DNA from: a virus
Taxonomy: Duplodnaviria > Caudoviricetes
Virus record (IMG/VR): IMGVR_UViG_3300025678_000005
Strand: one strand, 5' to 3'
Length of the DNA stretch: 64,000 nt
Shown here: positions 6,450-64,000 of the stretch, one piece after another
Numbering within the stretch: position 1 is the first letter of the stretch
Layout of the letters: each line of letters opens with the position of its first letter
Position numbers and translations under genes: made by a program
The notes under the pieces: generated by a model
Databases searched by the model: none
Seen by the model: only the letters and a program-made list of their open reading frames with translations
Told to the model about the DNA's origin: nothing

Positions 6450-6580
6450 TAACCTTTATGTGTCTAGAAATAAAATCTTCATTAATTGTGTCAAAGGAAC
6501 TCATTATTTGTTATAAGGCCATTAAACGAATAAAGAAGGCAGATAAAATCTTTATAATAAAATAATCAATTAACTAAAAT

Positions 6581-6649
6581 GGGGCAGTCTGGGTTGGTTT
6601 TCCTCTATTGAGAGAAAACATTACGTGGGTTCAATTCCCACCTGCTCCA
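6581..6649 (+). ncRNA. tRNA-like RNA resembling an isolated tmRNA tRNA-like domain
   Basis: Acceptor GGGGCAG/CTGCTCC-A with G3.U70; T-arm GTGGG-TTCAATT-CCCAC; no D-stem; GTTTTC(C)TCT-ATTG-AGAGAAAAC hairpin in place of an anticodon arm. Confidence 0.65.
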
Positions 6650-7862
6650 CTTTTTAAATCTTTAAGGTTATGGCTATAATAGTGACATTTAATTTAAAAA
6701 AACAAAAAGATACTTTAATATGGGATCAATATTTTATGAATTATGATGATCTCTTAAGATATAAGAAAAGAATAGAAAGTGAAGAAAAATCTTCTATATT
6801 GATTACTAATATAAGAGAAGTTTAATTTAATAAAAATAAAATTAAAATGAAAAAAGAAATATTAACCGCTGAATTGGTAAATAAATTTGGTATAGAAGGA
6901 AATGGTAGAAAATTATTTTATAAATTATCTCATAAAATAAAAAGGGGACAAGTACCATTTCATAATGATGATATTGTAAAAAGTTTGGAAGAAGACAAAG
7001 AATTTCTTCTTAAGGATGAATTTAAACAATATGTTGATGATTGTTTAGATGGAATTGAATATGTGTGTATTTCGGATGCTTTTGGATTTTATGAACGTTG
7101 CTGCAACTTCTTGTGAAAGATGTGGAAAGAAAGAATATTTAATATTCCCAACTGCTATAGGAGGTGAAAATACATTTTCAATGTCTGGTGGAGATAGATT
7201 TTCTATGAAAGAACCAGAATTTTATCTTAAAGAACTTGCTGAATTAAACGGCTTTAAATGGGGAGGTATAAAATAATGGAACAAAATGAAAAACAAAGAC
7301 TTGAAAAAATTATACGTACAGAAAAATCATTTACAGATGAAGAGCTTTTTAAAGAAATTTTATCTCTTTTAGAGAAACAAAGACACTATGCAAGATTATT
7401 ATATAATGAAGAATATGTTAATGAAGAAGAAGAAAAGAAATTTGAAGTGTATCTTTATTATATAGAAAAACAAATAAGACTTCTTCTTGCTTTAATTTAA
7501 AAAAATTTATTATATAATTGATTTCAATATCAAAATAAAGAAAGAAAATACAAATCAAATAAAAAAAATTAAAATTTAACAATTTAAAAATTTACAACTA
7601 TGCAATTTATTGAAATTAAAACTAAGAGAGGGATAAATGTTTTGATAAATATAAATTTTATTGATTGTGTAATTGAAGATTTAATTACTCAAGAAATTAA
7701 TATTTATTCAGTAGGCTTTGATTCTCCTCTTACAGTAAACATGTCTTTAAAGGAATTTAAAGACAAATATTTATTATCAACAATTTAAAAATTTACAAGT
7801 CAAAATTTGAAATTAACATAAATACAAACTTAGATGCACGAAAGGCATGTTTTATACTTGCT

Positions 7863-28435: not shown

Positions 28436-28936
28436 ATGTTAAAATTAATAACAATTACAATGCAATTAGATACTTTAACACAAAAAATATCTAATGTAAG
28501 AACAACGATCAAAGATATAAATACAATTATAGAATCTGATCCTATTGCTATTTTAAATGAAAACACATTGGAATTCAATCAGGTCGCTTTAGAATTATTA
28601 GGTGCGGTTCCAGGAGACAGAATTGAAATAGCATGGGTCTATATTGAAAATAAATTCAAACCTGTTGTATTTAAGTCTGAAACACGAGGAAATTTATTAT
28701 CTAAAAATAATAGAATAATTTGTAAGGGAACAACTTCAAAGGATTTAGGTAAAATAGCAAATAAATTTTATATTGTTCCATTTGAAGATATGTTTCTTCT
28801 TGTTACTGAAGATGAATATAGTTTTCCAGAAAGTGATGATCTAAATGATTTAACTAAAATTGATTTGGAAAACTATAATATAAATAATTTAGATGATGAT
28901 AATTTTCAGATAAATATGCTAGACTCTAAAATTTAA
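28436..28936 (+). CDS. Hypothetical protein
   Basis: 166 aa ORF, acidic C-terminus. Confidence 0.65.
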   Translation: MLKLITITMQLDTLTQKISNVRTTIKDINTIIESDPIAILNENTLEFNQVALELLGAVPGDRIEIAWVYIENKFKPVVFKSETRGNLLSKNNRIICKGTTSKDLGKIANKFYIVPFEDMFLLVTEDEYSFPESDDLNDLTKIDLENYNINNLDDDNFQINMLDSKI

Positions 28937-42533: not shown

Positions 42534-44259
42534 ATGAAAAAGATTAGAAAAAACATTTTTGAAACTAATAGTAGTAGTACTCATTCTGTTGTTATAAAAG
42601 AAGGAGAGTTTAAAAATTTTCCAAAAAATATTAATTCTTTAAATATAACTACAGATGATTATGGATGGGAAAAGCATACTTATACTGATTTTACAGATAA
42701 AGCTTCCTATGCTTTAACTTATGCAATTAATTATGGTACTAAAAAAGATTTGAAAATGCTTGATAAAATATTAAAAGAGCAGTTGAATATTAAAGATATA
42801 AAATATGATGGCCTTACATTAAAACAAGCATTGAACTATGTTGGAAAAGATTCTAGAAAATTTGGATATATAGATCATCAGAGTGTAGAAGAAGCAAGTA
42901 AAATATTTAAAGATGAAAATAATTTAAAAAGTTTCTTATTTTCAAAAGATTCATAAAATTCGGCTCAAGGAAACCCCGAAGTCTTTAGCTTCTGGGAGGA
43001 ATTGAGCCACTATTCCTTCTTTTGTTGAATTTAACATAATTATTTCTTTCAAATATTTGAATATCTCAAAACTATTTTGTATCTTTGTGGTATGAAATTG
43101 ACCTTGCAGATTAAGCTGCTTCCAACTGTCGAACAAGCCGTGATGCTGAAAAATACGTTCAGCGTTTTTAACGAGGCTTGCAACACTATCTCGCAGATAG
43201 CGTGGGAACGCCATGCGTTCAAGCAGTTCAGTCTGCACAAGGAAGTGTATTATCCCATCAAGGAAACATATCATCTCTCTTCCCAGCTTGTCGTGCGTGC
43301 AATCAGTAAAGTTGCCGATGCGTACAAGCTCGACAGGAAGAAGCAGAGGCACTTTAGGGAGTTCGGGGCTATCACCTACGACAGCCGTGTGCTTTCCTAC
43401 AGCATGTCCAAGTCCGTCTGTTCCATCTCGCTTGTCGGAAGCCGTGAGAAGATAGCATATACCTGCTACCGTCCGCAGCTCATGCAGTATGCAAAAGGGG
43501 AAGCCGACCTCGTTCTTATCAAAGGAAAGTTCTACCTCTACCAAACGATAGATATTCCCGATGAGCATGAGGAGAACGCAGAGGACTTTATCGGTGTCGA
43601 TATGGGCATTACGGACATTGTATCCGTCTCTGACGGCACTAACATTTCCTCTGATGAGGTCAAGAACATACGAAACAGATACAACAAAGTGAGAGCTTCT
43701 GTCCAGTCTAAAGGCACTCGCAACTGTCATAAGTTGCTGAAACGGTTGAAAGGACGTGAGAGAAGATTCGCCACCATTGTGAACCACCGCATCAGCAAGC
43801 AACTCGTAGCAAAGGCAAAGGAAGAGAACAAGGGTATCGCCATTGAGGACTTGAAGAACATCCGATGGGGCATGAACTCCAAGAAACGCAGCAGGACGTT
43901 CCGCAGGAGGAGTAACTCGTGGAACTTCTACCAGCTCCGTTCCTTTATTGAATACAAGTGCAAGGTGGCTGGCATCAAGATTGTCGCCATTCCGCCTGCC
44001 TACACATCGCAGACCTGTCATGAGTGCGGACACATAGGTATTCGCAACGGCAAGCACTTTCACTGCACGCACTGTGGCAATGTAGCAGACGCAGACGTAA
44101 ACGCTGCTCTGAACATCGCCACATGGGGGTATGTAAACACCCATGAAAGATGGGATTTGTTGTCGTGTCCTATACATGATGATTTTTCTACGTCTAAAGC
44201 CCACAAGTCTTTAGCTTGTGGGTAGTTTACATTTTAAAACTGATAATGATAATATGTAA
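42534..44259 (+). CDS. FETNSSSTHS-motif protein 1, interrupted near its C-terminus by an IS
   Basis: IS removal restores ..FSKDS-YFKTDNDNM*; also carries GYIDHQS. Confidence 0.75.
43056..43087 (+). promoter_or_regulatory. Bacteroidota-type promoter of tnpB
   Basis: TTTG-N20-TATCTTTG. Confidence 0.6.
43092..44225 (+). CDS. tnpB: RNA-guided endonuclease TnpB
   Basis: RuvC GVDMG, IEDL, DADVNAA; zinc finger CHEC..CTHC. Confidence 0.93.
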   Translation: MKLTLQIKLLPTVEQAVMLKNTFSVFNEACNTISQIAWERHAFKQFSLHKEVYYPIKETYHLSSQLVVRAISKVADAYKLDRKKQRHFREFGAITYDSRVLSYSMSKSVCSISLVGSREKIAYTCYRPQLMQYAKGEADLVLIKGKFYLYQTIDIPDEHEENAEDFIGVDMGITDIVSVSDGTNISSDEVKNIRNRYNKVRASVQSKGTRNCHKLLKRLKGRERRFATIVNHRISKQLVAKAKEENKGIAIEDLKNIRWGMNSKKRSRTFRRRSNSWNFYQLRSFIEYKCKVAGIKIVAIPPAYTSQTCHECGHIGIRNGKHFHCTHCGNVADADVNAALNIATWGYVNTHERWDLLSCPIHDDFSTSKAHKSLACG

Positions 44260-47540: not shown

Positions 47541-48140
47541 ATGTTAGAAGCAGAATATAAATACAATTTAGAAAAATTGTATGATCCAGAATATATTAGT
47601 GATTATTACGCTAATAATAATGTACAAAGTAAAAGTTCTTTATTAAGAGAATATTTAGCAAATTCTAAAAAATCTGATGTTCCAATATCAGAACGAATTA
47701 AAAGTTTTATAACCTTTAAGGAAAAATCTAAACCAATAACAATCAGTAATAAAGTAAAAGAAGCTATGGATTTTTTTATACAGAAAGGACTTACTAAGGA
47801 ACAGGCAGCTGGAATATTGGGTAATCTTCAGGTAGAATCGAATTTAAATACTACAGCATGGGGTGATAATAATACATCTTATGGTATAGCGCAATGAAAT
47901 AAAGACAGGTTGGATGGTTTACATGCATTTTCAAAAATTAGAAATAAACCTACACACGATTTTCAAACACAACTTGAATATATTTGGCACGAATTAAATA
48001 CTACAGAAAGAGCAGCACTTGATGAATTACTTAAGACTAATAATCCAGTAGATGCTGCTCGTGTATTTGCTAAAAAATTTGAAAGAATGAAAGAGTATAA
48101 TCCAAAACGTGAAATATACGCTAAAATGTTTAACGCCTAG
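47541..48140 (+). CDS. Phage tail lysozyme-domain protein (TGA=Trp at 47895)
   Basis: AAGILGNLQVES..YGIAQ[TGA]NKDR..QLEYIWHEL..FER. Confidence 0.85.
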
Positions 48141-51100
48141 CCATAGGATTTGGTACTAATTCCATAAAGTTCAAATTTGATCTAATAAAACTTTCAACTG
48201 ATCCGTTTCCAGAAAAAACATCCTTAACAGAATCTATAGTATCTGATAAAGTACTTATAAATACTGGAGTTGTTTGTATATCTCCTAATAGAGAAAATGG
48301 ATTAAATTCCTTTGTCGATCTCATTAAGATTTTACAAGCCATTCTTTCGTATTGATCCATCTGACTATAGTTTGTTTTTCCAGTAATTAAATCTTTATTT
48401 TTAAATATTAAAATACCAAGTAATATATTAATTAACATTATAATTAAATCATGTAACATTAATTTCGCATTATTAAGTCTATGTGGTTCTATTTCTTTTA
48501 ATGATTTTCCAGTAGCAAGCTCCCTTATTGTTATACCAAAAGAATACATTAATCCTTCAAAAGGATCTCCAACTCATTCTCAATCTGGTGAATAAGCATC
48601 TCCAGGTTTTAATTCTGTTTCTGGTATTTCAAGTCTATATTCTTGTCCATTTTCATCTGTTTCATACTTTACATAATATAGTACTTTTTTACCATTTACC
48701 ATTTTAAACTTCTGTTGCATATGGCCTCTTTTTGTTTTTGTAGGTTTACCAAAATAATATCTTATCTTGGCTGGCCAGAAAGTCATAAATTGACCAAAAA
48801 ATATACCAAGTGGTAAATGCTTTATAAGAGGACTTCTATCATAGTCATAATATCCATACGCCAATTCTGTAAAAGTTTTTATACTTTCTCTTTCAAGATT
48901 CATATATGGTTCTGAAATTAGATCTTCTTCTTTATATGTTTTATCGTTTTTAAAAATAGCTTGTTTATTAAAATAATCAATATAAGTTTTGTATAATGCT
49001 CTTTGTGTATTATATTTTTTATCAGTTGGATGATCTTTCATTCCATATTTTTTTCTCATTTGAAAATAATATGAAAATCTTTCATCCTTTGTTACATCAT
49101 AAACTAAATTACCATCTTTATCTAAAGAATATGCTTGGTAAACACCATCTTTTATTAATTTTGAAAGAAATAATGCTAATCTATTGATATAGTCTGGAGC
49201 TGTATTACTCCAATACATAAAATCACTAATGAAATTTAATCCTCTTCTATCTATCTTTGTTTTATCAACTATCTGATTCATATCTCTATTTGCAATTCTA
49301 AAATAATTATTTAACTCATTAACTAAAGCATAATCCTTTTTTGATAATAATAATTTATAGGCCTGTGTTAAATATCTTCCAGAAAAACTATCATCACCAT
49401 ATACTTTTGATCAGGCATAAGAAGTATTCTTTATAGTACCAACTACTAATTCTTTAATTGCCATGGCTGGTCTTATAGCTAAAACCATAAAACTTACTCC
49501 TTTTTGCAATAGCCTTATATAGCTAAATAAATCTTCATATTCTTTTCCTTTTATTGGAGACACATTATATATTGATACTTTAATCTGTTCCATTGTAGTG
49601 TTTAATAATTTTTCAACTTCTTCAATATGACCAGTTTGATACCCATAAAATCGCAAATTTTGCATTGCTGCATTAATATATGGAAGTACTTCATTAAAAT
49701 ATTTTTCTTTAATAGATTCAAATATATATTTTAATAAAATAGTATCTAAGTTAATTTCTCAATGTCCAACACTATATCTTGTTAATAGATAATCCCTAAA
49801 TTCTTTATCTTCCTGACTTTTGAATCTATTGTAAATTTTCTTTAGGCCATTTATAGCATTCATTGAACCAATATATTGTAATTCTTTTTCTGCTTCTTCA
49901 GGAGTTTCTTGTTTTATATCCAATATATTTAATGCATTTTCTTTAATATTTCCAACCATTTTTCTAAATCCATCTGTAGTCAAAGTTTTTAATTCACTTA
50001 AATTCATTCTTGGAATAAGAGGAATTTTTAATAAATTTTCAATTTCTCCAGAAGCAAGCATTTGTTTTAGTTCTTCTGATTTTTCAAACTTTTCAAATGT
50101 ATCTAATTCTTGATTTGAGCCATCTCTATATAAATAAAACAGATGTATATATTGTTTTAAATATTTTCTTTGTTCTGGAGTTAAAGCTGTTTCTTTTGAT
50201 CATGGATTTTTTAACTTAAATTCTGAATCCAATTTATTACCGTCATGTTCATAAAATGGACTGTAGAATCTATCTGCATCACCAATAAACGTTTTTTCAA
50301 GCCAGGGTCTTCCCATTTCTTTATACATTGCATTTGTTAAATTAATAACTTTATTTTTTTCTTTTAAATAAATACTACTAATTTTATCCTGAGTAAGATT
50401 TCTAACATCGTATATTTGGTTCAAATATTCTGATTGAACAGCATCAGTTGTTGCAAGTTTCATTCCCTGGAACATTCCAACTGTAGGAATTTTTATATTT
50501 GTATCTTTTACTTCTCCAAATAATCAGCTTTTTAACATGTGTGTAAAATCACCTTTTGTCATACCATACTCATTTACGCCAGTTTCAAACTCTCCATTGA
50601 TTCCTATAAAATGAGATATTCCTCCACTTACTAATGCATATAGATAAACAATAGGATCGCTAAAATCAGTAATTTTAGTTGGATCTATTTTATTCAAATG
50701 GCCATATGTTTCTAAAAGTTTATCACTTAGTTGAGTTAATAATTTTATTTTTTCATTATTTGTTGATGGATTGTCAAATTGCTCCATACTAAAATAAGCA
50801 TTTAATGCATCATTATTTATAGTTCTTAATGCATCTAATATTTCTTGATATAATATTTCCATATAATCTGCTACTTTAATTTTTTTATTAGCAAAATTAT
50901 TTTCTATATTTATATCATCCTTTATTTCTTTTAGAAGCAAATCGAAATTATAAAAGGCATTTTCCAAATTATTAGATCAGTCTGGTGTTCCAGAGGAAAT
51001 ATCCAATACTTTTATATTTCCAAGTTTATATCCATATAACACATCTGGCATAGCATTTAATACAGTCAAAGTTTTTAAAATTTCTATATGTGAACTTGTA

Positions 51101-52989
51101 GCGTTTCATATTTTTGGATCTCTATTTAAATCTGAATCTCTATAAAATTTACCAAGTACTTTAGTTCCAAGACCAAGATTGTTAATTTGTCTTAAATTAT
51201 TAATTGTTAATGTTACAACTTCTACCTGTAATGTCTTATTATTGCGAAAAACAAGTGTGCCATTTGCTAATAAAGCAGGTCTATTTGTAATTAATTCTCA
51301 ATCTCCACTTAAGTATTTTTGAAAAGTAGTATTTAGACCATCATAAATAAGTCCTTTTATATTTAATTTTCCAGTTTTTTTTCCTTTATTTATTTCTTTA
51401 ATTATATCCTGTACAGCTGTATCTTTTTTAGCATTTAATAATTCTACGTATTCGGCAACTCTTTTTCTAAATCTTTCTACGCCTTCTTCGGTGTTGGGCT
51501 CTTCAATATATTCACCAGTTAATCTATTCAAAAGTTTAATTGTTTGTCTTCCTTCGGCCCTATGTTTAGCTTTTGTTATTAAAAATTCTATATCTTCTAT
51601 TTTACGTTTTGTCCTGAAATTATAAGTAGGAAACATTGCAGATAATGTTTTTTGTATATTACTTATTATTACAGTACTTTCTTCTGGGTTATCTTTAACT
51701 TTTACAGGAATTAATTTTCTAAGCGTTTGTGTGACAATTCCATTTTCATCAAGGCCAGATGGTTTATATGCATAAGAAGAACTTCTTTCATTTACCTCTC
51801 CAATATAAAATTTATCTGCCATTATCAATCCATCTCTATTTACTGGAAAAATTGCTGGTAATATGTATAATGATATAAGTTGTGGATTAATTTCTGGTGG
51901 CAGCAAATCCTCTAGTAATCTCCTTGATATACCAAGTTTATAGTCAGTTCTTAGAATTTTTGCTGAGTCTCAATCTGTAATATTATTTCTAGAAACTCTT
52001 ACATCATAAATGCTGGGAATTCCATCACTGTTTATAGATAAGTAAGAGATTGGAGATGATATTCCTGTTGCATTTTCTATAGGTAATTGTCTATTTAACC
52101 AAACATCTGCTTCAAATTTTTCAGTAGAATTTAAAACAGTTTGTTTATATCATTTTTGTATCTGTTCTTTTATATTTTGTGATATATTTACTTTTTCTTT
52201 TTCTGTAAAACTAAAGTCATGTTTTATTAATTTATTATAATTCTCTACAGTTTTTATAATTTTTTCTATAGAATTATCAATAGAAAATTTAGGATTCTTT
52301 TTTATATAATTTTGTAAAATATCATTAACTATTATTTGTAAAGACACCATTATATTTGAAGTCTTTAATTCCAGGTCTACTTCTTCTGTTGCCCTTCTAA
52401 GCGCTTCTTCTGGATCAGACTCATTTAAATCCTTATATTTTGTATTAAGTAAATCATTTATAGCTTCTTTCTTATAGTTTTCATCATTAAAAACAGGAGC
52501 AAGTAATTTTGGATTTTCACCATCTATTATATGTTCCATTTTTAAAAATTGACTATCAATAATAAAGTTCTTACTATATGGTACATTATTTTTCTTAATT
52601 TCTTCTCATACTCTATCCTGTATAGAATTTTCTTTAATATCAAATTTCAAGACAGTATGTTTTTTATTTTCCAATCATTCTTTAAACTGTTTAATATCTT
52701 CTTCTGATCCCAATATATATTTATTAAATGGTGTATATGAAATACCTTCATTAATATCATGTTCTTTTGGATCTAAATTAGGAAATTTGCTGTCTATAAA
52801 ATCAATATATTGTTCAAGTGTTCCAATACCTTTTATTTTTTCATCGTATATAGGTAATATATAATCATTTATAACATTTCCAGGTATTGAATGTATATAA
52901 TGAGCCTTTATAAAATCAGAAAGTTCTTTATCAGATTCATAAGTAAATTCATTATTTCCATCTTTTAAAAAATATTTGCATTTATCCAT
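48130..52989 (-). CDS. Giant virion/cargo protein, 1619 aa with TGA=Trp
   Basis: Nine listed ORF fragments share one frame and are broken by TGA; ends in TAA. Confidence 0.82.
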
Positions 52990-52990
52990 A

Positions 52991-55900
52991 TTAGTAATTA
53001 CATTTTTGTTCTAATTTTTTTTCATCTATTAGTTTTTGTATAATGTCTGCTACAGTAAACATTTCATAAGAACTATTAAAATCTATTAATGATTCTTCTC
53101 CATCAATCAATTTTGAACCAAAATTGGTTAATACATCATAAATAGAAGTTTTCATTAATCCATTTACATCTTCTCAGTCCAGGTTCTCTTCAAGGTTTAA
53201 CATATCAGAAATTGTATCTTTAATTGTAGTGTTAAAACCGTCATCTGAAAATACTCCATCACTTTTAATATTTTTATTAAAAGTTAATGTAAATAATTTA
53301 ATAAAGCTTTCTTCTAAAGCTTCGGCATTAATCATATTGCCAGCAACTTCTTTGAATATTGGATGATATTGTACAGAATTAATGATTCTATAATACATAT
53401 CAGAATTTCTAGCTTTCATTGTAGCCAAAATAACATGGAGTAGTTCATGGAGAGGGTCTGTTATTCTAGCTTTATCAAGATTAATGTATATTTCATCAAA
53501 AGTAGTAAAAGAAGATGCTTGATATACCTTTGGATTATTAAATCTTTCAAGATCGCTATTCTTTATTAAGTTTATTTTTATATTAAATTTTTCAGATAAA
53601 TAATTACTAAAGTTTACAAGAAACTCATAACTACTAGATTTAACATTTATTTTAGTTTCTTCTTTTTCAATATTATTTTTATATTTAGATATAAATTCAT
53701 AAGTATTTATTGCCCATTTTGGAGTAAAAATTCCTTTAATATTTAAATCTGTATATTCATCTAATATAACAGTTTCTCCTTTTACATATCTAAATTCACC
53801 ATTTCCATTTGGTATTTTAGTATACGAATATTTTGTTGCCACTAAAGCATTTTTTAAAATTTTTTCTACAACTAGAACATTCTTACCTAAAGAAATAAAA
53901 CTTCCAGGAATTATTTTATATAGTTCATTTGAGCGCAACATTTTAATAAAATTCTCTTTAGACATTTCAACAAAATTAGTATTTAAAGAATCTTTTTTAT
54001 AATAATTATTTGTTGCTATAGCATATAATTTGTCTGGTATATTTTCTCATTTATATCTATCCTGCATTAATTTTTTATATTCCTGTGTAATATCTTTATA
54101 TCCTTTTTCTGCTATATTAGATTCAATTGGATTAACGTTTGCTGGTAAAATAAATATGAAATTATTTGGATTTTTATATACTTTTACTTCTACATAAGAT
54201 TTACTTTGTACTTGTGGTTCTCTAAATACTTCTATTCTTGATTTTTGAATGCTTAAATTAGCAAAAGACTCATTAAGTCTTTTTGTAAATAGAATATAAT
54301 TATGTAATGAATTTCTATCTATATTAAAATATCTAAATGTGTTATCACTCATTTTTACAACTGTCTTTATGTAAAAATGTTTTATACCATTTATCAAATT
54401 ATATCCAGAACCAATAACTTTATATAGCAATTTAGTTTCTGGATTATACAATATGTCATCAGACAATATTGTAGAATAGTTATTTAAGTCTGATACATTA
54501 AATGTTAAATTATTTAACCTATCATAATCTTTTTCTAAAATAGATTGTACAGACTTATTATTTTTTAGAATATTGTTTATATAATAAGATATATTAATTA
54601 AATCATCATTGTTTATAATATTCTGGTTTGTATTTCTTGGTATTTCTGTTCCAACAATATTATATTGACTGGTAACTCCAAGCTTGTAACCTTCGTCGTC
54701 TTTATATATATATAAGAATTTATTTGTAACAAACTCATTTCCAATAATTAATCCTATGAATTTAGAATTTCCTATTGATATAAGTGCACGTTCTCCAATT
54801 GTTGGAGTCTTATAATTCATATCTATATTTTCTTCTAATAATTCTAAATTTGGTACTGGTAACTTTATATTCTTGATTTCATCTATTCTTAAGGATTTAT
54901 TATTATCTAATACAATTATAGAACCTCTAATTTCTTTAATTTTATAATCTTTATGATCCAAAGTTACAAGAATATTATTATTTTTTAACAAATTCAATAT
55001 ATGTTTATATGAAACAGATTTGAAGTGTTTATGTAATGAAATTGGTATTTTTTCAGATTTAGTATATGAATAATTATTATATATTTCATCTGTATATACC
55101 ATAGCTTCTACTGAATTACTATTTGTATTAATAGATAATTTATTGTCTATAGTATAAATATATTCTGAAGCAATTCTATTACGTAAAAATAAATTTCCTG
55201 TTTGTGTATTTTGTCCCAATGTTCTTATAATATATTTTCCATCAGAATCAATATAACTATCATAGAATAATTCGTATCAATCAGTTGCATTTGGATTTGA
55301 AATTTTATCAGGATTTGGTATTAATACAAGATCTCCCTGCTTTAAATCAAGTATATTTATTCTTGATTTTGGTAAATGTTTTGAAAGACGTTCTTCATTA
55401 TCTATATATTTAAATTTATTTCAAGTATCGTGTAAAGACAGCCTTTCAGTATTAATACTTCTATCCTCATTTATTGATTTAACTACACTGCGATAATAAG
55501 CAGTATAGATTATTTTTTTTAAATCATTGGTTTTTTCTTCATCCTTTGTTTTAATAATTGATTCCAAATACTTATCGGCCATTAATTTATCTTCCTCTTT
55601 TTCTGAATTTACAAGCTCTCTAAAATTTATTTCTCCGAAAGCATTATATAACGCCAATTCAACCAATGCAATGATATTGTTATCTGTACTGTTCATATAA
55701 TTTAAATTGAAAAATATATGACCTTTATAGAATGAAGTTGGGACGTTCTCTTCTCCAAAACCAGCAATAACATTATTTGTTTTTCAATCAACACCGATAT
55801 TTAAAAGTCGTAATAATCCAGATTCTCTTGGAGATAATTGTTTTACAAGTTCACCTGGACTATATACTCCTACAGTGTTTTCATTTATATCATTTAAATT

Positions 55901-56083
55901 TAAGTCTTGTATATTATCAAAATCTAATAACTTATTTTTTAATTCATTATAAGCAGCTAAATTAGAACTGTCTATATTTTTTTTCAATTCAAAAATTAAA
56001 TCTTCTAAAGAGTTAATTTCATTCTGTGTAGAAAACAATTCTACTTGCTTTCCTTCTAGATTAACCGTATACTTGCAATCCAT
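52991..56083 (-). CDS. Giant virion/cargo protein with zincin motif, 1030 aa with TGA=Trp
   Basis: Four in-frame fragments; HELLH. Confidence 0.82.
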
Positions 56084-59000
56084 TATTTACATTCTTTACT
56101 AATTACTAATTTTTTATTTTTAATTTGCTGAACAATTTCATCAGCTAAATTTTGTGATTGTTTATTAACTGTTATTTCATGTGAAACTTCATAAGGAAAA
56201 GTATAATATCTATTCATTTGTAATGTTTCATTTTCAGTTACATTTAATTTTTTTGGTTTATTTTTATCATAAATATCAACATCACCAAAAACATATAATA
56301 GAAATCCTTTTAAATTATTATTATTTTCAGATAAATCTTTTACTAAAATATCAACATCTTCGTGTGTTATAGAAGATTCAAAATTAAGAAATTTTCTTGA
56401 AATAGAATTTGGATCATCAGCATCTTTATAAAATAATTCTGTAGCTCTATTTCCACCAAATCTTCCTTCATTTATAATTAAATTATATGCAGTTAATAAA
56501 TCTATTAACTTAATTCCAGCATTTAATTTAGAATCACCATCTTGTACAGTATTTATATTTAAAATATAATCTGTATTTATATATTCTCCAGAAGCTGGAT
56601 CTCATTCTTTAGAAAATCCCCTACCAATCATCTCACTTATACCTGCCTCGAGATCTTCCAATTCATCATAATTAGATTCATCTAAATAATAAGATATTTT
56701 TTTATTTAAGTTATAATTTAAATATGATGTCTTTACAAATCTCTTTAAAAATCCATTATTAGCGTGTTTTTTCTTTTCAAAAGGTATTATATATTCTTCC
56801 ATTATATATTTAAATTTTGCTAATTCATATGGACTATTTAAAGAAAAATACCTTATTGGAGAATTTTCTAAATCTTTTTTAGTAAAAGTATCTACAGAAA
56901 TTTCATCTTGACTGTCTTTTAATATTCTAATATTATCTATACCCAAATAATTCATTAATGCTATCAAATCAAATTTATAATCCAGAGTATTAAAAAATTT
57001 ATAAATAACTCAATTATCATAATAATCGTTTATTTTATTCAGTATTCCTGAACTGTATGTAACTGGATTATTCTGCACTCCATTAAGTATTATATGTTTG
57101 GTTATTTTATAATATAATTCGTTTTGCGGATAAATATCCAATATTTTTTCAATTATCTTTTTACTGTTATTTATTGAATTAAAATAATGTTTATTTGTTT
57201 TTGAGGTAATAACAGTATCAACAGTATGAAAAGATTTAAACATGCTATTAAAATGCTTTAAAGAAGATAGTACATCTAATATATTAAATGTAGATTTTAT
57301 AAGATTGTAATAATCAATAGCTATTTTTCTATAATTATCATCATTAAAAAATAAATCCAAATCTAATTCTTTTTCTACTATATTAATATTTTTAGCTTTG
57401 TCATATATTTCTTCAATAAGCACTTCATTTAATCAAGGTTTATCTTTCTTAATAGTTTCTAAATCACTTAAATCATTAAAATATTTTCTTTTCAACATTT
57501 TTCTTTGATTGACCAACGAAAATCTTAAATTATTCAATAATTCATAAAGACTTTCTTCATTAGCTTTAGATCCTTGATTAACACTTAAAAAAGAGCCAAG
57601 AGTAATTAATTCTTGAGAGTCCATAAATATATTGAAGAAATTGACAAAGAAATTACTTCTATATTCATTTATAGGAAGAGCTTTTATATTCTTGTCAATA
57701 GAAGCCCTGATCATATTGATTCTGGAAACGGGTCTACCATTTGTAATAAAAATGTTGTTTTCTGTTTTTCTTTTTAATTCCATAGCCTCTGGAGATGTCA
57801 TAAACTTTGTAACTTCATCTGGCGAAACTCCCAACATGAGTAAATAAATATGCATTCCAGCAAATTCAATTCCAGCATTTATTTTTGCTAATAAAAGCTC
57901 TTTTGCATTATCAGTAGCAAGTGTTAAAATGGCCGATATATAAAAAGCTATATCATTATCTAATGGAAATTTTTCCATAGATGATATTATATAATCAATA
58001 TATTCTGAATTACTCATATATTCAGAAAGTATTGTATCTTTAGAAATGCTTTCTAAAGAAGTCCTAATATTTTGTACTAAAATTTCATCTAGTTTGTCTT
58101 GAATGTTTTTATAATTATTTAATCCAGCAATTTTATTAAAGCAATATTCTTTTCCATTAATTACATAATGTTTGAAGAAATATTTACTACTATTTACATC
58201 TATATTATCAACATTCATATAATAGTTTCCAAAATATTTTACAAGTGCAAAATAATTTTTTAATCCTACAGCTGCAATACCAATAACAGCTTTACCTACT
58301 GTGTTTTGTTCTTGTTGCAAGCCCATAGTATATCCATTATAAACATCAAGATTATATGGTGAGTCAGAATAATTCTTTTTTATTTCTCCATAAACTCCAG
58401 ATGTTACTGGTATATTAGATGCAACTTGTGTTGTAGGACTTTCAAGAACACCTATCATTTTGTTTACAATATAGTTTTTAAATCCATTCTCGTTATAATA
58501 AGATTCGTGCCTATTAATAGCTTTTAATAAATAATCATCTTCTGAATATATATATTTATATTCATTTTTATTTAATTCATTTGTAATTGCTATAAATTTA
58601 TCCAGAAAACTGCTATCGTTTATTCCATTACTTTCTAAAAAAGAATTTATATTAAATACATCATTAGAAAAATTTATACCATTGTCATCAGTAATTAAAA
58701 CATCTTTGTATTTTGTTAGATTTTTTTCATTTAATAAAATATATTTTCTGTTTTTTGGAAGTGGAATATTAATTGATTCATCAAATTTAGTTGTATCAAA
58801 ATATGGAGACCATGCTTCAAATTGACCATTTTTAAATGAGTATCCCATTGTGTATACTTTATCAATGTCAAGATCTGATCCCTGTAGAAATAGTTGTCAG
58901 ATAGATACATATATATCATTTGCTGATCCAGGAATAAATCCTACCGTTTCCATAGACATAACTGATTGTAGTGCTTGAGCTGGAATTCTAGCTACAACAG

Positions 59001-62000
59001 ATTTTAAAGATTGCTTAAAACTTTTATATTTTATATTTGCCAGCCTTTTTGAATATTTAAATGTTTCTGTTTTTTGTTTTGTTTTAAGAAATTCTTCATA
59101 TAAATCAATTACATTCTTTTTAGTTATTTGTCCAGTATTATACTTATCTATAATATCCTTTTTAAATTCTTTATAATTTTTTATTTTTTTTCTAAAAAAG
59201 CTTTCTAATTCTTGATTATTTACAGAATTTGCTATTGTTGTTAATAATGTCAAATAATCATCATCCACCAAATCTAATAATTTATCTACGGTATTATATC
59301 CTTTATCCTTTGTATAAATATAATTCAAATTATTATGGCTTTCTAAAAAGCTATCAATACCTTCTTTAATATATAAAATTTCATTGCCTTTAGTATCTAA
59401 GAACACTTTATAGGAAGCTGGTAATTTATACATTTTATGTCCAAAAGAATCTATTCTATAATTACCATCATCACTTATATAAATTTGAATTTCTTCTGCT
59501 ATTGGAGAATACTTTGCAATTTCTGCATCCAAAGAAGTATTATTATTTTCAGCATCTCTTTTTGCAAGTTCCATTACCGTTTTTAAATATAATTTATTTT
59601 TATATTCAATATAATTAAAATCTTCTAAAGAGACATAATAGTCTTCTCCGTTTACACCAACTAAAACTAAATCTGCTGGAACTGGTAATAATGGATGAAG
59701 ATATTTCTTTGGCAATAAAAAGTCTGAGATGTTTATTTTATTTAGATTGGTATCTTTCTTAATTCCAAATGTGTCATATTCACCATAAGATCTAATATTT
59801 TCTGGTGCATAATATTTATAATCTGTAATACTATTAGTATTAATATAATTATTTTCAAATTTTCCTGTAAAATCATCAAAGCCATCTACGGTTTTAAAAA
59901 TAGTATTAAAATAATTATCATTCGTTTCTTGATAAGATATATAGTTCTTATTATATGATAATAACTCAAAAGTTCTTTGTATTCATTTATCAACATATGG
60001 CAAAATATTTACACTCCCTGTAATATTTTGAATATATTTAACAAAATCATTATACATTTTGCTTGTTTTAAAAGTATTATCATTTAAAAGTCTCCATTTG
60101 AATTCTATTGCATCACAATCTCAAATACTCCTTTGAATTCCATTTTCTACGAATGTAACATCAGATGGTTTTAAATCTCTTGGCTGATTATATATCTTAT
60201 TTATAATAATATCAGAATTATTTAAAGATTTTATTAAACCTTTAATTTGAAAATAATCATTTATTTCATTTAATCTAATAGGAGTATTGGCTGGTATTAA
60301 ATTACCGTTTAATGTTATATCTATATTTAATGAAATTACATCCAGGGGTCTTATACTTGAAATATTTATATTTGTAGGCTGTAAACTTGGAAGAGTAGAT
60401 AATACATAATCTATCTTTGCATTATTTATATCATGTAAATTATCTAATGTATTAACTTGTGGTTTTACAGATAATTCATCATATATACGAATTAAATCAG
60501 TATTTAAATATTTATTTCCATCTCTATCTTCATATAACTGTACAAATCCTTGTGAAGGTCTTAACACATAACCAGCTCCTGGAAATTTTCTTCTAACAAA
60601 TTCTGCATTAACCTCAGAAATTAAAAAGCTTATAAATTGTTTATATATTGTTTTATTATCAAACGGTATAATATGCTCAAAATCATTTTCTAATGCATTA
60701 ACAATTGTCCTAGCATTATTAATTTGGGATGAATTATTCAATCTTTTTATAAATAATTTTGTAATAATTTCAAAATCCTTATCACTATTTAATCTAATAT
60801 TAAATTTTTCAAGTCCACGTTCGGTAACTGTAGAAATAGCATCATATACAGCATCTGACAGTTCGGGAACTAGATTCATTTCAGATAATGCTGATATAAC
60901 TTGTGTAATTTCATTTACTTCAGAATCTTCTACTGTATGATAAGGATCTAGCTGTGTTCCAAAAAACGAAGTATCGAATATAAAATAATTTAAGGGTTTA
61001 TCAGAAGAAAACACATCTTTTACTGTATTTATATTTGTGGCACCATATTTTATTGCGCTTTTTGGAACCAGCATTGTAATTAAACTTTCTTTAAGAGTGT
61101 TATTTTTATTATAAATAGCATGTTTACTTACAATTGAGGCCACTAAATTAATAGAAGATTCATCATATTTAATTTGATTGTTTTCCATAGTTGCAGAATA
61201 TTCTCCACCAAATGCTTTCCATAAATCAAATAGATTATTGATTTCTACTTGTTTTTCATCTCCACCTTCAAAATATATAGTATAAATATTATCCTTTAAA
61301 AGTTTTATATTTAAAAATTTTTGCATCTTACCATTGTGTCATAAATATAGATTTGGTACAATAGCTTGTAAATCTATTGGACTATAAGAATCAGAATCGC
61401 CAAGATCTTTAAAACTAAATAGATCAAAATAACCATCTTTTCATAGATACTCACTATTTAATTTTTTCATAATATTATATAGTTCTACATCTTTTCTATT
61501 ACTATTTCTTATATCATTATTACTTATTGCAAATGTTGCAAATTTTAGTAATCCAGAAAAAGATTCACTTATTATTTGGGCAATTGGTTTTTGTGAACTC
61601 TGTAAATTGTATCCTGGTAGTGAAACTTTAAGTAATTCATTAAATATTGGATTTACCAAAGCTCCCCCATTATAAACTTCTATTTTAGTTTGATCACCAG
61701 TATAGTTAAATACTGTAGTTTCTGGATCAGACATAACAGCTATTTTATGTTTTTGTAAAATTCCTTCTGGACTTTTCCCATATATACTCATTGATGCACC
61801 AAAAATGTTCATTCTTTTGGTCATTGTTGTTGTACGTTTATTGTTTTCTCTGGTTAATACAGATTCTATACTATCTCATTTATTATTTACTGGGGTAAAC
61901 AGTTTTTCATATGGATGTATGTATGAATCTTTTGTTGAAATATTTAAGTACTGAGATGTTACAAGATTTTTTGTTCACAAATATGTTTTAACAATATCTG

Positions 62001-64000
62001 TTATATTGTTTTCATCTTTTAAAACTATTTCATCATCATTAGTTATTTTTATATTAGGAAAAGCATTTGTTATTGATGCTATTTTTTCTTTTTTGTCTTT
62101 CTTTTGAAAAACAATATAATTTAAAGAAATTTTTTCTGGAATATATTTAAATAATTCTTTTTCTTGATATTCAACTCATTTATCAAATAACTTCTTATCA
62201 TTAAATATTTGTACATACGATTTCAAAAGTTGATTAAATTTAATAACATCTTTTCCGTTTTCATTTTTATAAAAAGAATAATGAGTTTCTTCAGAAATTT
62301 CTACATGTTCAGAAGAATGTATTTTATCTGATATTGCTTCTAAAATTTCTTCTTTAGAATTAAGCTTATTAAATTGTTCCAGATATTCTTCAATTTTATT
62401 TATCTTAGAAATGGATGTTTTTGGTTTAGTTTTAAAGAAATCATTATCTAATATATAAAAATCATTATATATATTAGATATTAATGTATTATAATAATCT
62501 GATTGATAAACCCTCATCACTTCTTTCAATTCTTCTAAAGAAATGCTATTTAAAGAACGTAATCCAAATGGAGTATTTATATTTTTTGCTGTATTGAAAA
62601 CAGTACCATATATAGTAGACTTATCTGAATAAGTTACTGGAATATTGATAAATTCGTTGTCCTTTAATCTGGCTTCCAAAAAATATTTTGTAAAAGACAA
62701 CATGAATATCTCATTTGCATTTAAATCACGTAAATCTTTTGAACCATATTTACCAATAACCTCTAATAGTACTTCATTTCTTTTATAAAATCCAGGATTT
62801 TTTGAGAATATATTATCAGTTTTATCAATAATATTATTAAATAAAGAAGACATATTTGCAACAACCATAGTTGGAACAGACTCTCCAGTAGATTTTTTTA
62901 CCTGTGTGACTGTATCAAATTTTATATCTCTCTTAGATATTTTAAACAAGTCTCTTAGATGTAAAATATCATCTACATCATTAGCAAAATATGTTGCCAC
63001 TCTGGTTGGAATATTATCTGTAGATTGATATTTTATATTGCTTGTTAAATATTTAATAGCATTTTTAAAATTATTACTATTAAAATCTACATTTTTTGAT
63101 TCAAGTATTTTTCTATATTCTTCTATCGTTGTTTGTGATAAAGAAAGACCTCCTTTATTCTGATCTGTTAACAATTTAATAAAATCATCAAAATTATTAA
63201 CAGTATAATTTGAATTTATAATGTTATTTGTTTGTGCATTATCAAGATTTACAAATAAATTCTCTACTTCCTTAGATATGGTGAAATCCAAATCTAAAAC
63301 GTCCACAGTTTTGCTATCATCATAAACAGATGCTTGATGATAAACATTCTTTACAGTATTTCTTAAATGATTAATTAAAGCCAATTCGGGATTTAAAATA
63401 AAATCTCCAGTTTCTTTGTTTGCATCTCTTCAAGCAAGAATAGAATTTCTTAATCCTTTAGGAGCATATAAAAATTGATATATACTTTCCAATACACTTT
63501 TTCTTGCCAATATGTTATTGCTTTTTTCTACTCCTTGGTCTATAACCGTTCTTAATATTTTTTTAAAAGAAAGTACATCTTTATCATATAAATCATATAA
63601 TTCTGAAATAGTATGTAATTCATTATTACCATTTATTTCAATATTAAATTTAATATCATTATTTAATTCATTTAAAATAGTTCCAGCGGCATCTAAATTA
63701 TTTTTACCAATAGACAATCCATACTCATTTTTTACTCAAATTGTACCTTTTGAAGTTTTTCTTTGTTCATAAAATGGTATAGTATAAGCAATTAATTTTA
63801 TTAAAGAAGTTCTGTTTTCTTCAACACTATTTGCATTTTCATTATCCAATAAACTTTTCTTACCTCATCTTATATTAAGTGAATATTTTGGTAAACCATT
63901 TGTAGGAAGATTAAATGTTCCAGAACTATTTATATTTACTTTTACTTTATCCGAATGATTATTAAGTAAAAAACTGTCAAAATTGGTTAAAAGTAATGAT
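56083..64000 (-). CDS. Virion DNA-dependent RNA polymerase, partial (>2600 aa, TGA=Trp)
   Basis: Eight in-frame fragments; RIPAQ and QGSDLDIDK (DxDxD at 58861-58875). Confidence 0.88.

Follow-up and report, generated by a model that had tools for sequence, protein, structure and literature searches.

The tmRNA list of Hudson, Lau & Williams 2014 (PMC4131195) contains the entry 'Mycobacterium phage DS6A (TLD only)', a tmRNA consisting of its tRNA-like domain (TLD), and a 2025 tmRNA database paper repeats this entry (PMC11915505). The same database paper describes tmRNAs without a coding sequence (CDS) in jakobid mitochondria and in the plastids of Mallomonadaceae, the latter about 65 bp long. 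In E. coli, a TLD-like molecule is reported to inhibit tmRNA strongly, perhaps by titrating SmpB (Mao et al. 2009, cited in PMC4131195 and PMC11915505). SmpB binds the elbow and D-loop region of the tmRNA TLD (PMC3968760), and that paper, with minihelix work cited there, indicates that the G3:U70 pair and A73 suffice as identity marks for AlaRS. We placed the DS6A TLD-only RNA at positions 28478-28557 of JN698994.1, a record that carries no annotation for it.

We analysed a 64,000-nt stretch of phage DNA (the window) and found a 69-nt element of this kind at positions 6581-6649 of the plus strand. An earlier note on this DNA had described a message-less, alanine-type TLD with a GGGGC start, a G3.U70 pair, an A discriminator, a T-arm, no D-stem and a hairpin closed by a 4-nt loop, and the sequence and its predicted fold contain every one of these features. 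The acceptor stem comprises 7 bp between GGGGCAG (6581-6587) and CUGCUCC (6642-6648), and its third pair is a G.U equivalent to G3:U70; the discriminator A follows at 6649. Nine unpaired nucleotides that include GGG (6588-6596) occupy the place of the D-arm. This stemless D-loop analogue, UCUGGGUUG, retains the GG, and the usual ...UCGAC neck is missing from it. A hairpin resembling P2/H2 (6597-6619), with 9 bp, a bulged A at 6613 and a UAUU loop at 6606-6609, stands where a tmRNA has its whole mRNA-like domain and pseudoknots. The linker AUUAC (6620-6624) keeps the AC before the T-stem that is conserved in the family described below and in tmRNA, and the GG of GGAC is missing. The T-arm, GUGGG-UUCAAUU-CCCAC, spans 6625-6641. 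The RNA is preceded by a gene-free leader of 131 nt (6450-6580) and followed by the trailer CTTTTT (6650-6655); CCA is not encoded, and the run of U after the acceptor helix could be a terminator.

Folding of the 69 nt with RNAfold gave a minimum free energy of -27.4 kcal/mol, and the centroid was identical to the minimum-energy structure. The fold was more stable than that of dinucleotide shuffles (z = -2.9), of which 3 in 200 were equally stable, and the pairs of the central hairpin had probabilities above 0.97. The RNA has the tRNA-like T stem-loop and the reduced, stemless D-loop of a tmRNA, with the T-arm aligned at posterior probability '*', and it carries both marks of AlaRS identity as defined in PMC3968760. 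There is no anticodon arm in the fold. Between the D-loop analogue and the linker lies the 23-nt hairpin alone: no tag reading frame, resume codon or stop is present in the 69 nt, which also hold no sequence to form any of the pseudoknots PK1-PK4. No open reading frame of at least 40 amino acids overlaps 6581-6649 on either strand. Since the RNA contains no message, it cannot direct tagging.

Standard annotation tools pass over the element. An Rfam scan of the window at gathering thresholds gave no match at 6581-6649, and ARAGORN in bacterial mode, which the earlier note had named as a check, called neither a tRNA nor a tmRNA there. In its mitochondrial mode ARAGORN reported an 'mtRNA-Asn' at the element, which we dismissed as noise because it was one of 55 such calls in 138 kb. 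The comparison of tmRNA and tRNA models that the note had also proposed came out in favour of tmRNA. At permissive thresholds, tmRNA was the best Rfam family at the site and beat tRNA in clan competition, both scores lying under their gathering cut-offs: the tmRNA model RF00023, run globally, scored 42 bits (cut-off, 47 bits) and the tRNA model RF00005 25.5 bits (cut-off, 29 bits). The RF00023 match covered exactly 6581-6649 and ran from model position 1 to 374 with the middle deleted; as this model also yields sub-threshold matches in archaeal control genomes, its E-value alone cannot separate a TLD from a tRNA or prove tmRNA ancestry. The DS6A RNA obtained a similar 43.2 bits on the same model. 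When the 69 nt were searched with blastn against isolate phages, the matches were limited to the 3' ends made up of T-arm and acceptor.

We then asked how widespread such RNAs are in phages. A scan of IMG/VR with a pattern derived from the element returned at least 118 stretches. About half of the matches listed were ordinary 73-nt tRNA-Ala genes; the others included at least 51 distinct sequences of 60-82 nt, the element's own copy among them, that ARAGORN did not call. Most of these fold into an acceptor stem, an unpaired stretch, a single hairpin and a T-arm. When the pattern was narrowed to acceptors reading GGGGCAG, the list was complete at 21 stretches, some 16 of them mini-tmRNAs; 15 of the 21 had already been among the matches first listed, which puts that first set at about 70% of the strict-pattern total. 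At two positions that the pattern left free, the acceptor pair 6:67 and the second pair of the T-stem, Watson-Crick pairing was found in 48 of the 51 listed sequences in each case, and pairing at such free positions was upheld through all four Watson-Crick combinations.

To examine covariation we aligned 44 members, leaving the 6581-6649 element out and including the elements of DS6A and of the TM7 phage DolZOral124, neither of which the pattern recovers. G3:U70 and A73 were invariant. Pair 6:67 covaried (UA in 21 members, AU in 11, CG in 7 and GC in 2), and in the P2-like helix both sides had changed at each of the six pairs scored. The alignment as a whole had a covariation score of 0.315, against 0.088 ± 0.010 for shuffled sequences and 0.05-0.09 when the pairing partners were slid, which bears out the covariation among phage homologues that the earlier note had put forward as a test. 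The hairpin was placed canonically in 50% of the real sequences and in 9% of those with shuffled middles. A covariance model (R1) built from the 44 other members had a single match in the 64-kb window, at 6581-6649 (53.3 bits, E = 3.4e-9); this match is significant, and most of the members behind the model were gathered with the element-derived pattern. For the same reason, no independent weight attaches to the acceptor and T-arm bases that the pattern fixed. The positions it left free, the architecture of the hairpin, and the members from DS6A and the TM7 phage do count as independent.

The TM7 phage DolZOral124_53_65 (MG269973.1) encodes an unannotated TLD-only RNA of 63 nt (L277:1465-1527) with G3:U70, A73 and an encoded CCA, which RF00023 matches at 34.9 bits (E = 3e-11). 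Many phage mini-tmRNAs have in common an inner mini-hairpin in the P2-like loop, approximately GAAA(G/A)CCG-CAYG-CGG(A/U)AC; carriers are DS6A (L268:28478-28557) and our loci L054, L093, L017, L284, L089, L021, L036, L086 and L118. This inner hairpin (GAAAnCCG-loop-CGGnAC) is missing from 6581-6649, which has a plain hairpin instead. Other AT-rich phage contigs (L070:3543-3620, L203 and L205) encode a different mini-tmRNA of 78 nt. It matches 6581-6649 exactly in acceptor stem and T-arm, but its neck is the canonical GUCGAC...GGAC and its CCA is encoded; phages of the same host group may be its origin. Separately, Kehishuvirus 'tikkala', a crAss-like Bacteroides phage (L276, about 1443-1532), and Streptomyces phage LilMartin (L278, about 1434-1530) have in common a tRNA-like element, roughly 80 nt long, that lacks annotation. 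Its CUGAUAAG loop region is conserved and its T-arm reads GUGGGUUCAA.UCCCAC; at E <= 0.001 no Rfam family matches it, and in 'tikkala' it occupies a gap in a tRNA array.

Comparison with the known systems places the element close to DS6A. Both RNAs are encoded by phages and combine G3:U70 and A73 with a D-loop analogue that has no stem, one central hairpin and a T-arm, and both lack a tag frame and an encoded CCA; the combination of TLD elements with one hairpin in a phage RNA of 60-85 nt applies to the 69-nt RNA as it does to DS6A. The DS6A RNA, however, is 80 nt long and GC-rich; its neck is GUCGAC...GCAC and its inner mini-hairpin GAAAACCG-CACG-CGGUAC, whereas the 69-nt element is AT-rich, with a UAUU loop on a plain hairpin and without the GAC/GGAC neck, and belongs to a phage that recodes TGA. 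The nearest bacterial TLDs that we found are those of tmRNAs in Chitinophagales-like Bacteroidota metagenome-assembled genomes (L207, L216, L231 and others). Their GGGGCAG/CUGCUCC acceptor is identical to that of the element and their T-arm is one loop base apart; they likewise have the discriminator A and no encoded CCA. These tmRNAs measure 354-377 nt and include pseudoknots, a reading frame for the tag and a neck of the GAC/GGAC type, whereas the phage RNA has a hairpin loop in place of some 300 nt and a different neck. The CDS-less tmRNAs of jakobids and Mallomonadaceae, which we compared by description only, resemble the element in their reduction to little more than a TLD and in size, but are organellar, vertically inherited and accompanied by an imported SmpB. 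tRNA-Ala and alanine minihelices share the G3:U70 and A73 set and the coaxial stack of acceptor and T-arm; unlike tRNA-Ala, the element has neither a D-stem nor an anticodon arm.

The element has the structure of a tmRNA TLD, is homologous to that domain, belongs to a covarying phage family and contains no message. The RF00023 score, which exceeds that of the tRNA model and is like that of DS6A, and the fit to the family uphold the note's identification of a TLD without message, and these comparisons support assigning 6581-6649 to the kind already known from DS6A. The element is a somewhat divergent addition to a known, thinly documented and largely unannotated kind of RNA.

One point of divergence is the neck. 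Among full-length tmRNAs with the same acceptor stem, helix 2 is flanked 5' by GAC or GAU and 3' by GGAC or AGAC in 21 of 21, and most mini-tmRNAs also have a neck of 5' ..GAC and 3' GGAC. The corresponding stretches of 6581-6649 read UUGG and AUUAC, so that AC alone is retained of the conserved neck. Because the missing GAC/GGAC motif lies beside the site at which SmpB contacts the TLD, binding of SmpB by this RNA cannot be assumed; to judge from the sequence, it may be weaker or different.

The parent IMG/VR record comprises 138,532 bp, is about 75% complete and has a GC content of about 25%. The earlier note had supposed that this phage recodes a stop codon, and the open frames bear this out for TGA: readthrough lengthens the longest of them from 668 to 2,924 codons, whereas readthrough of TAG leaves the open frames unchanged and we found no TAG recoding in the record. 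In-frame TGAs number 13, 5 and 13 in three giant minus-strand open reading frames (48130-63999), compared with 0 or 1 in each plus-strand frame. A tRNA(UCA) is encoded on the minus strand (G000:C1:60526-60599), 3.4 kb before the window and 10 kb upstream of the RNA; it scores 55.2 bits on the tRNA model and is the only tRNA or tmRNA that ARAGORN calls in the 138.5-kb record. The plus-strand arm holds the 69-nt RNA together with many small early-type genes and genes for DNA polymerase, helicases, primase, ligase and thymidylate synthase, and the RNA gene itself sits between two small early genes. We found no convincing promoter for it: matches to a sigma-70-like promoter were no commoner than in shuffled sequences, and a TAnnTTTG box was not found in the 131-nt leader. 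In the roughly 75%-complete record we detected no SmpB, no RF-1-domain or RF-like protein, no ArfB-like protein, no CCA-adding enzyme and no tyrosine integrase. A search for the host yielded no species genome with an identical 3' end, and a relaxed pattern found tmRNAs of Bacteroidota, Alteromonadaceae and others; sequence similarity hints at a Bacteroidota host. Elsewhere in the window, two Rfam DUF805b RNA motifs score above gathering on the plus strand (435-470, 48.6 bits; 2687-2721, 45.5 bits), and a transposase-like open reading frame (43077-44225, plus strand; PHROG 506, E = 4e-51), overlapped by an antisense frame of 422 amino acids, lies inside the replication arm.

Close copies of the phage provided a limited view of conservation. 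Three metagenome contigs from two sources, 97.4-98.7% identical to the phage, have all 69 nt unchanged. There are no variable sites in the RNA, 7 in the 131-nt leader and 8 in 151 nt of adjoining non-coding flank; at the flank rate, the probability of seeing none in 69 nt is about 0.02, and since solely near-identical copies were found this test is weak and suggestive at most. The near-identical metagenome contig L202 is without about 106 nt of the window (approximately 7021-7127). We found no diverged relative of the phage. Megablast against isolate phages gave no relative, a search with the DNA polymerase led to two distant IMG/VR loci without a tmRNA match, and the neighbour of 220 amino acids is a widespread DNA methylase and uninformative for finding relatives. 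The exact acceptor and T-arm pattern recovered the near-identical copies and the 78-nt mini-tmRNA described above, and no others.

What might such an RNA do? The top half of a tRNA, the acceptor and T-arm, suffices for recognition by RNase P, the CCA-adding enzyme and EF-Tu. Because the element has this top half together with the sufficient marks G3:U70 and A73, it should be matured and alanylated by host enzymes. We infer that it is expressed, processed, charged and bound by SmpB, and that the phage benefits. Transcription of the RNA would accompany that of early or middle genes on the plus-strand arm; RNase P would cut the 5' end of the transcript, its 3' end would be trimmed, and the host CCA-adding enzyme would add CCA. 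AlaRS would then charge it with alanine by way of G3:U70 and A73. The charged RNA would compete for SmpB, and perhaps EF-Tu, as the TLD of tmRNA does, and since it supplies no tag template, ssrA tagging and the resulting proteolysis would fall during infection. Late proteins, whose genes are rich in in-frame UGA, could in this way be protected from tagging at UGA pauses. On this analysis, an alanylatable competitor for SmpB that damps ssrA tagging is the most likely function, and we give an even chance to the full proposal of a phage TLD-only tmRNA gene whose product is matured and alanylated by the host, competes for SmpB and lowers tagging.

Other explanations deserve weight. The fold and the RF00023 and R1 matches would fit equally well a minimal rescuer, in which the alanylated TLD enters stalled ribosomes with SmpB and accepts the nascent chain without adding a tag, the ribosome then being released by drop-off and peptidyl-tRNA hydrolase, or by some other factor; tag-free rescue of this kind has been proposed for organellar tmRNAs without a CDS. 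The persistence of such tmRNAs beside SmpB in some plastids and in the mitochondria of jakobids (PMC11915505) shows that selection can maintain a TLD without a message. The E. coli molecule, however, inhibited tmRNA whether or not it could be charged, according to the test cited in PMC4131195; the neck motif is missing from the element, and with neither SmpB nor an RF-like or ArfB-like protein detected in the roughly 75%-complete record, there is no pointer to a release step of its own. We consider tag-free rescue unlikely. It is similarly improbable that the element has nothing to do with SmpB and acts as a tRNA-shaped processing signal, providing RNase P or 3'-end punctuation with a terminator, or as bait for a host tRNA-handling enzyme or a defence nuclease directed at tRNA or tmRNA. 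RNase P and the CCA-adding enzyme require no more than the top half of a tRNA, the element has a small early gene on either side and a run of U at its end, and its atypical neck weakens the case for SmpB; but processing would not need the strict G3:U70 and A73, invariant in 44 of 44 members, and the RNA has retained a tmRNA-type D-loop analogue and the AC linker.

The element could also be inert, either a phage-borne or captured ssrA with a deleted middle or a leftover ssrA attachment site. The want of a diverged relative to show long-term selection, of an identified promoter and of a score above the Rfam cut-off would all be in keeping with a remnant. Such a deletion, however, would have had to spare both the acceptor and the T stem and create a stable hairpin with perfect closure; dozens of unrelated phages have arrived independently at this architecture, with compensatory changes; and the 69 nt show no substitutions while their flanks vary. 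As for an attachment site, the roughly 75%-complete record has no tyrosine integrase, and an attP needs just the 3' part of ssrA, not the complementary 5' strand. Our searches turned up no relative whose corresponding site holds a complete tmRNA or tRNA, and independent phages have the same architecture, so the unique deletion that the earlier note had considered is not borne out, and an inert remnant seems to us distinctly unlikely. There is next to no chance that the RNA is a D-armless amber suppressor tRNA, built on a weaker alternative fold with a CT-CTA-TT loop that the note had pointed out. A UUUUC/GAGAG stem presenting CUA in a 7-nt CUCUAUU loop can be drawn, but we rejected it because it is 9.2 kcal/mol worse than the main fold (-18.2 versus -27.4 kcal/mol) with pairs of about zero probability in the ensemble, and because TAG is not recoded; moreover, position 37 would be a U, and ARAGORN in bacterial mode finds no tRNA at the site.

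Within the preferred reading, that of a competitor for SmpB, lies a narrower proposal, in which the mini-tmRNA is a dedicated accessory of recoding: made early, from the arm that is poor in TGA, it would disable ssrA tagging and so spare the late proteins from degradation, with its neck tuned to the SmpB of the host. The tRNA(UCA) would compete with RF2 at UGA codons of late genes, and ribosomes that pause there would escape tmRNA-SmpB. In a recoded E. coli, tmRNA rescue at stop codons left unassigned leads to degradation of the proteins and to a block on viruses, and viruses with such codons grow again once ssrA is deleted (PMC6207430). The loci of other mini-tmRNAs, in AT-rich phages, give no indication of recoding, so the connection does not extend to these RNAs in general, and we regard this specialized role as a minor possibility.

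Mini-tmRNAs without a tag escape the thresholds of ARAGORN and Rfam and are therefore missed by phage annotation. The neck-less copy at 6581-6649 offers a natural probe of what SmpB really requires for binding. Because tmRNA blocks viruses whose stop codons are read abnormally (PMC6207430), a suppressor tRNA encoded together with a putative antagonist of tmRNA offers a concrete and testable idea of how late proteins may be protected in recoded phages. More broadly, the recurrence of such RNAs in many unrelated phages suggests that damping or redirecting host trans-translation may be a common phage strategy.
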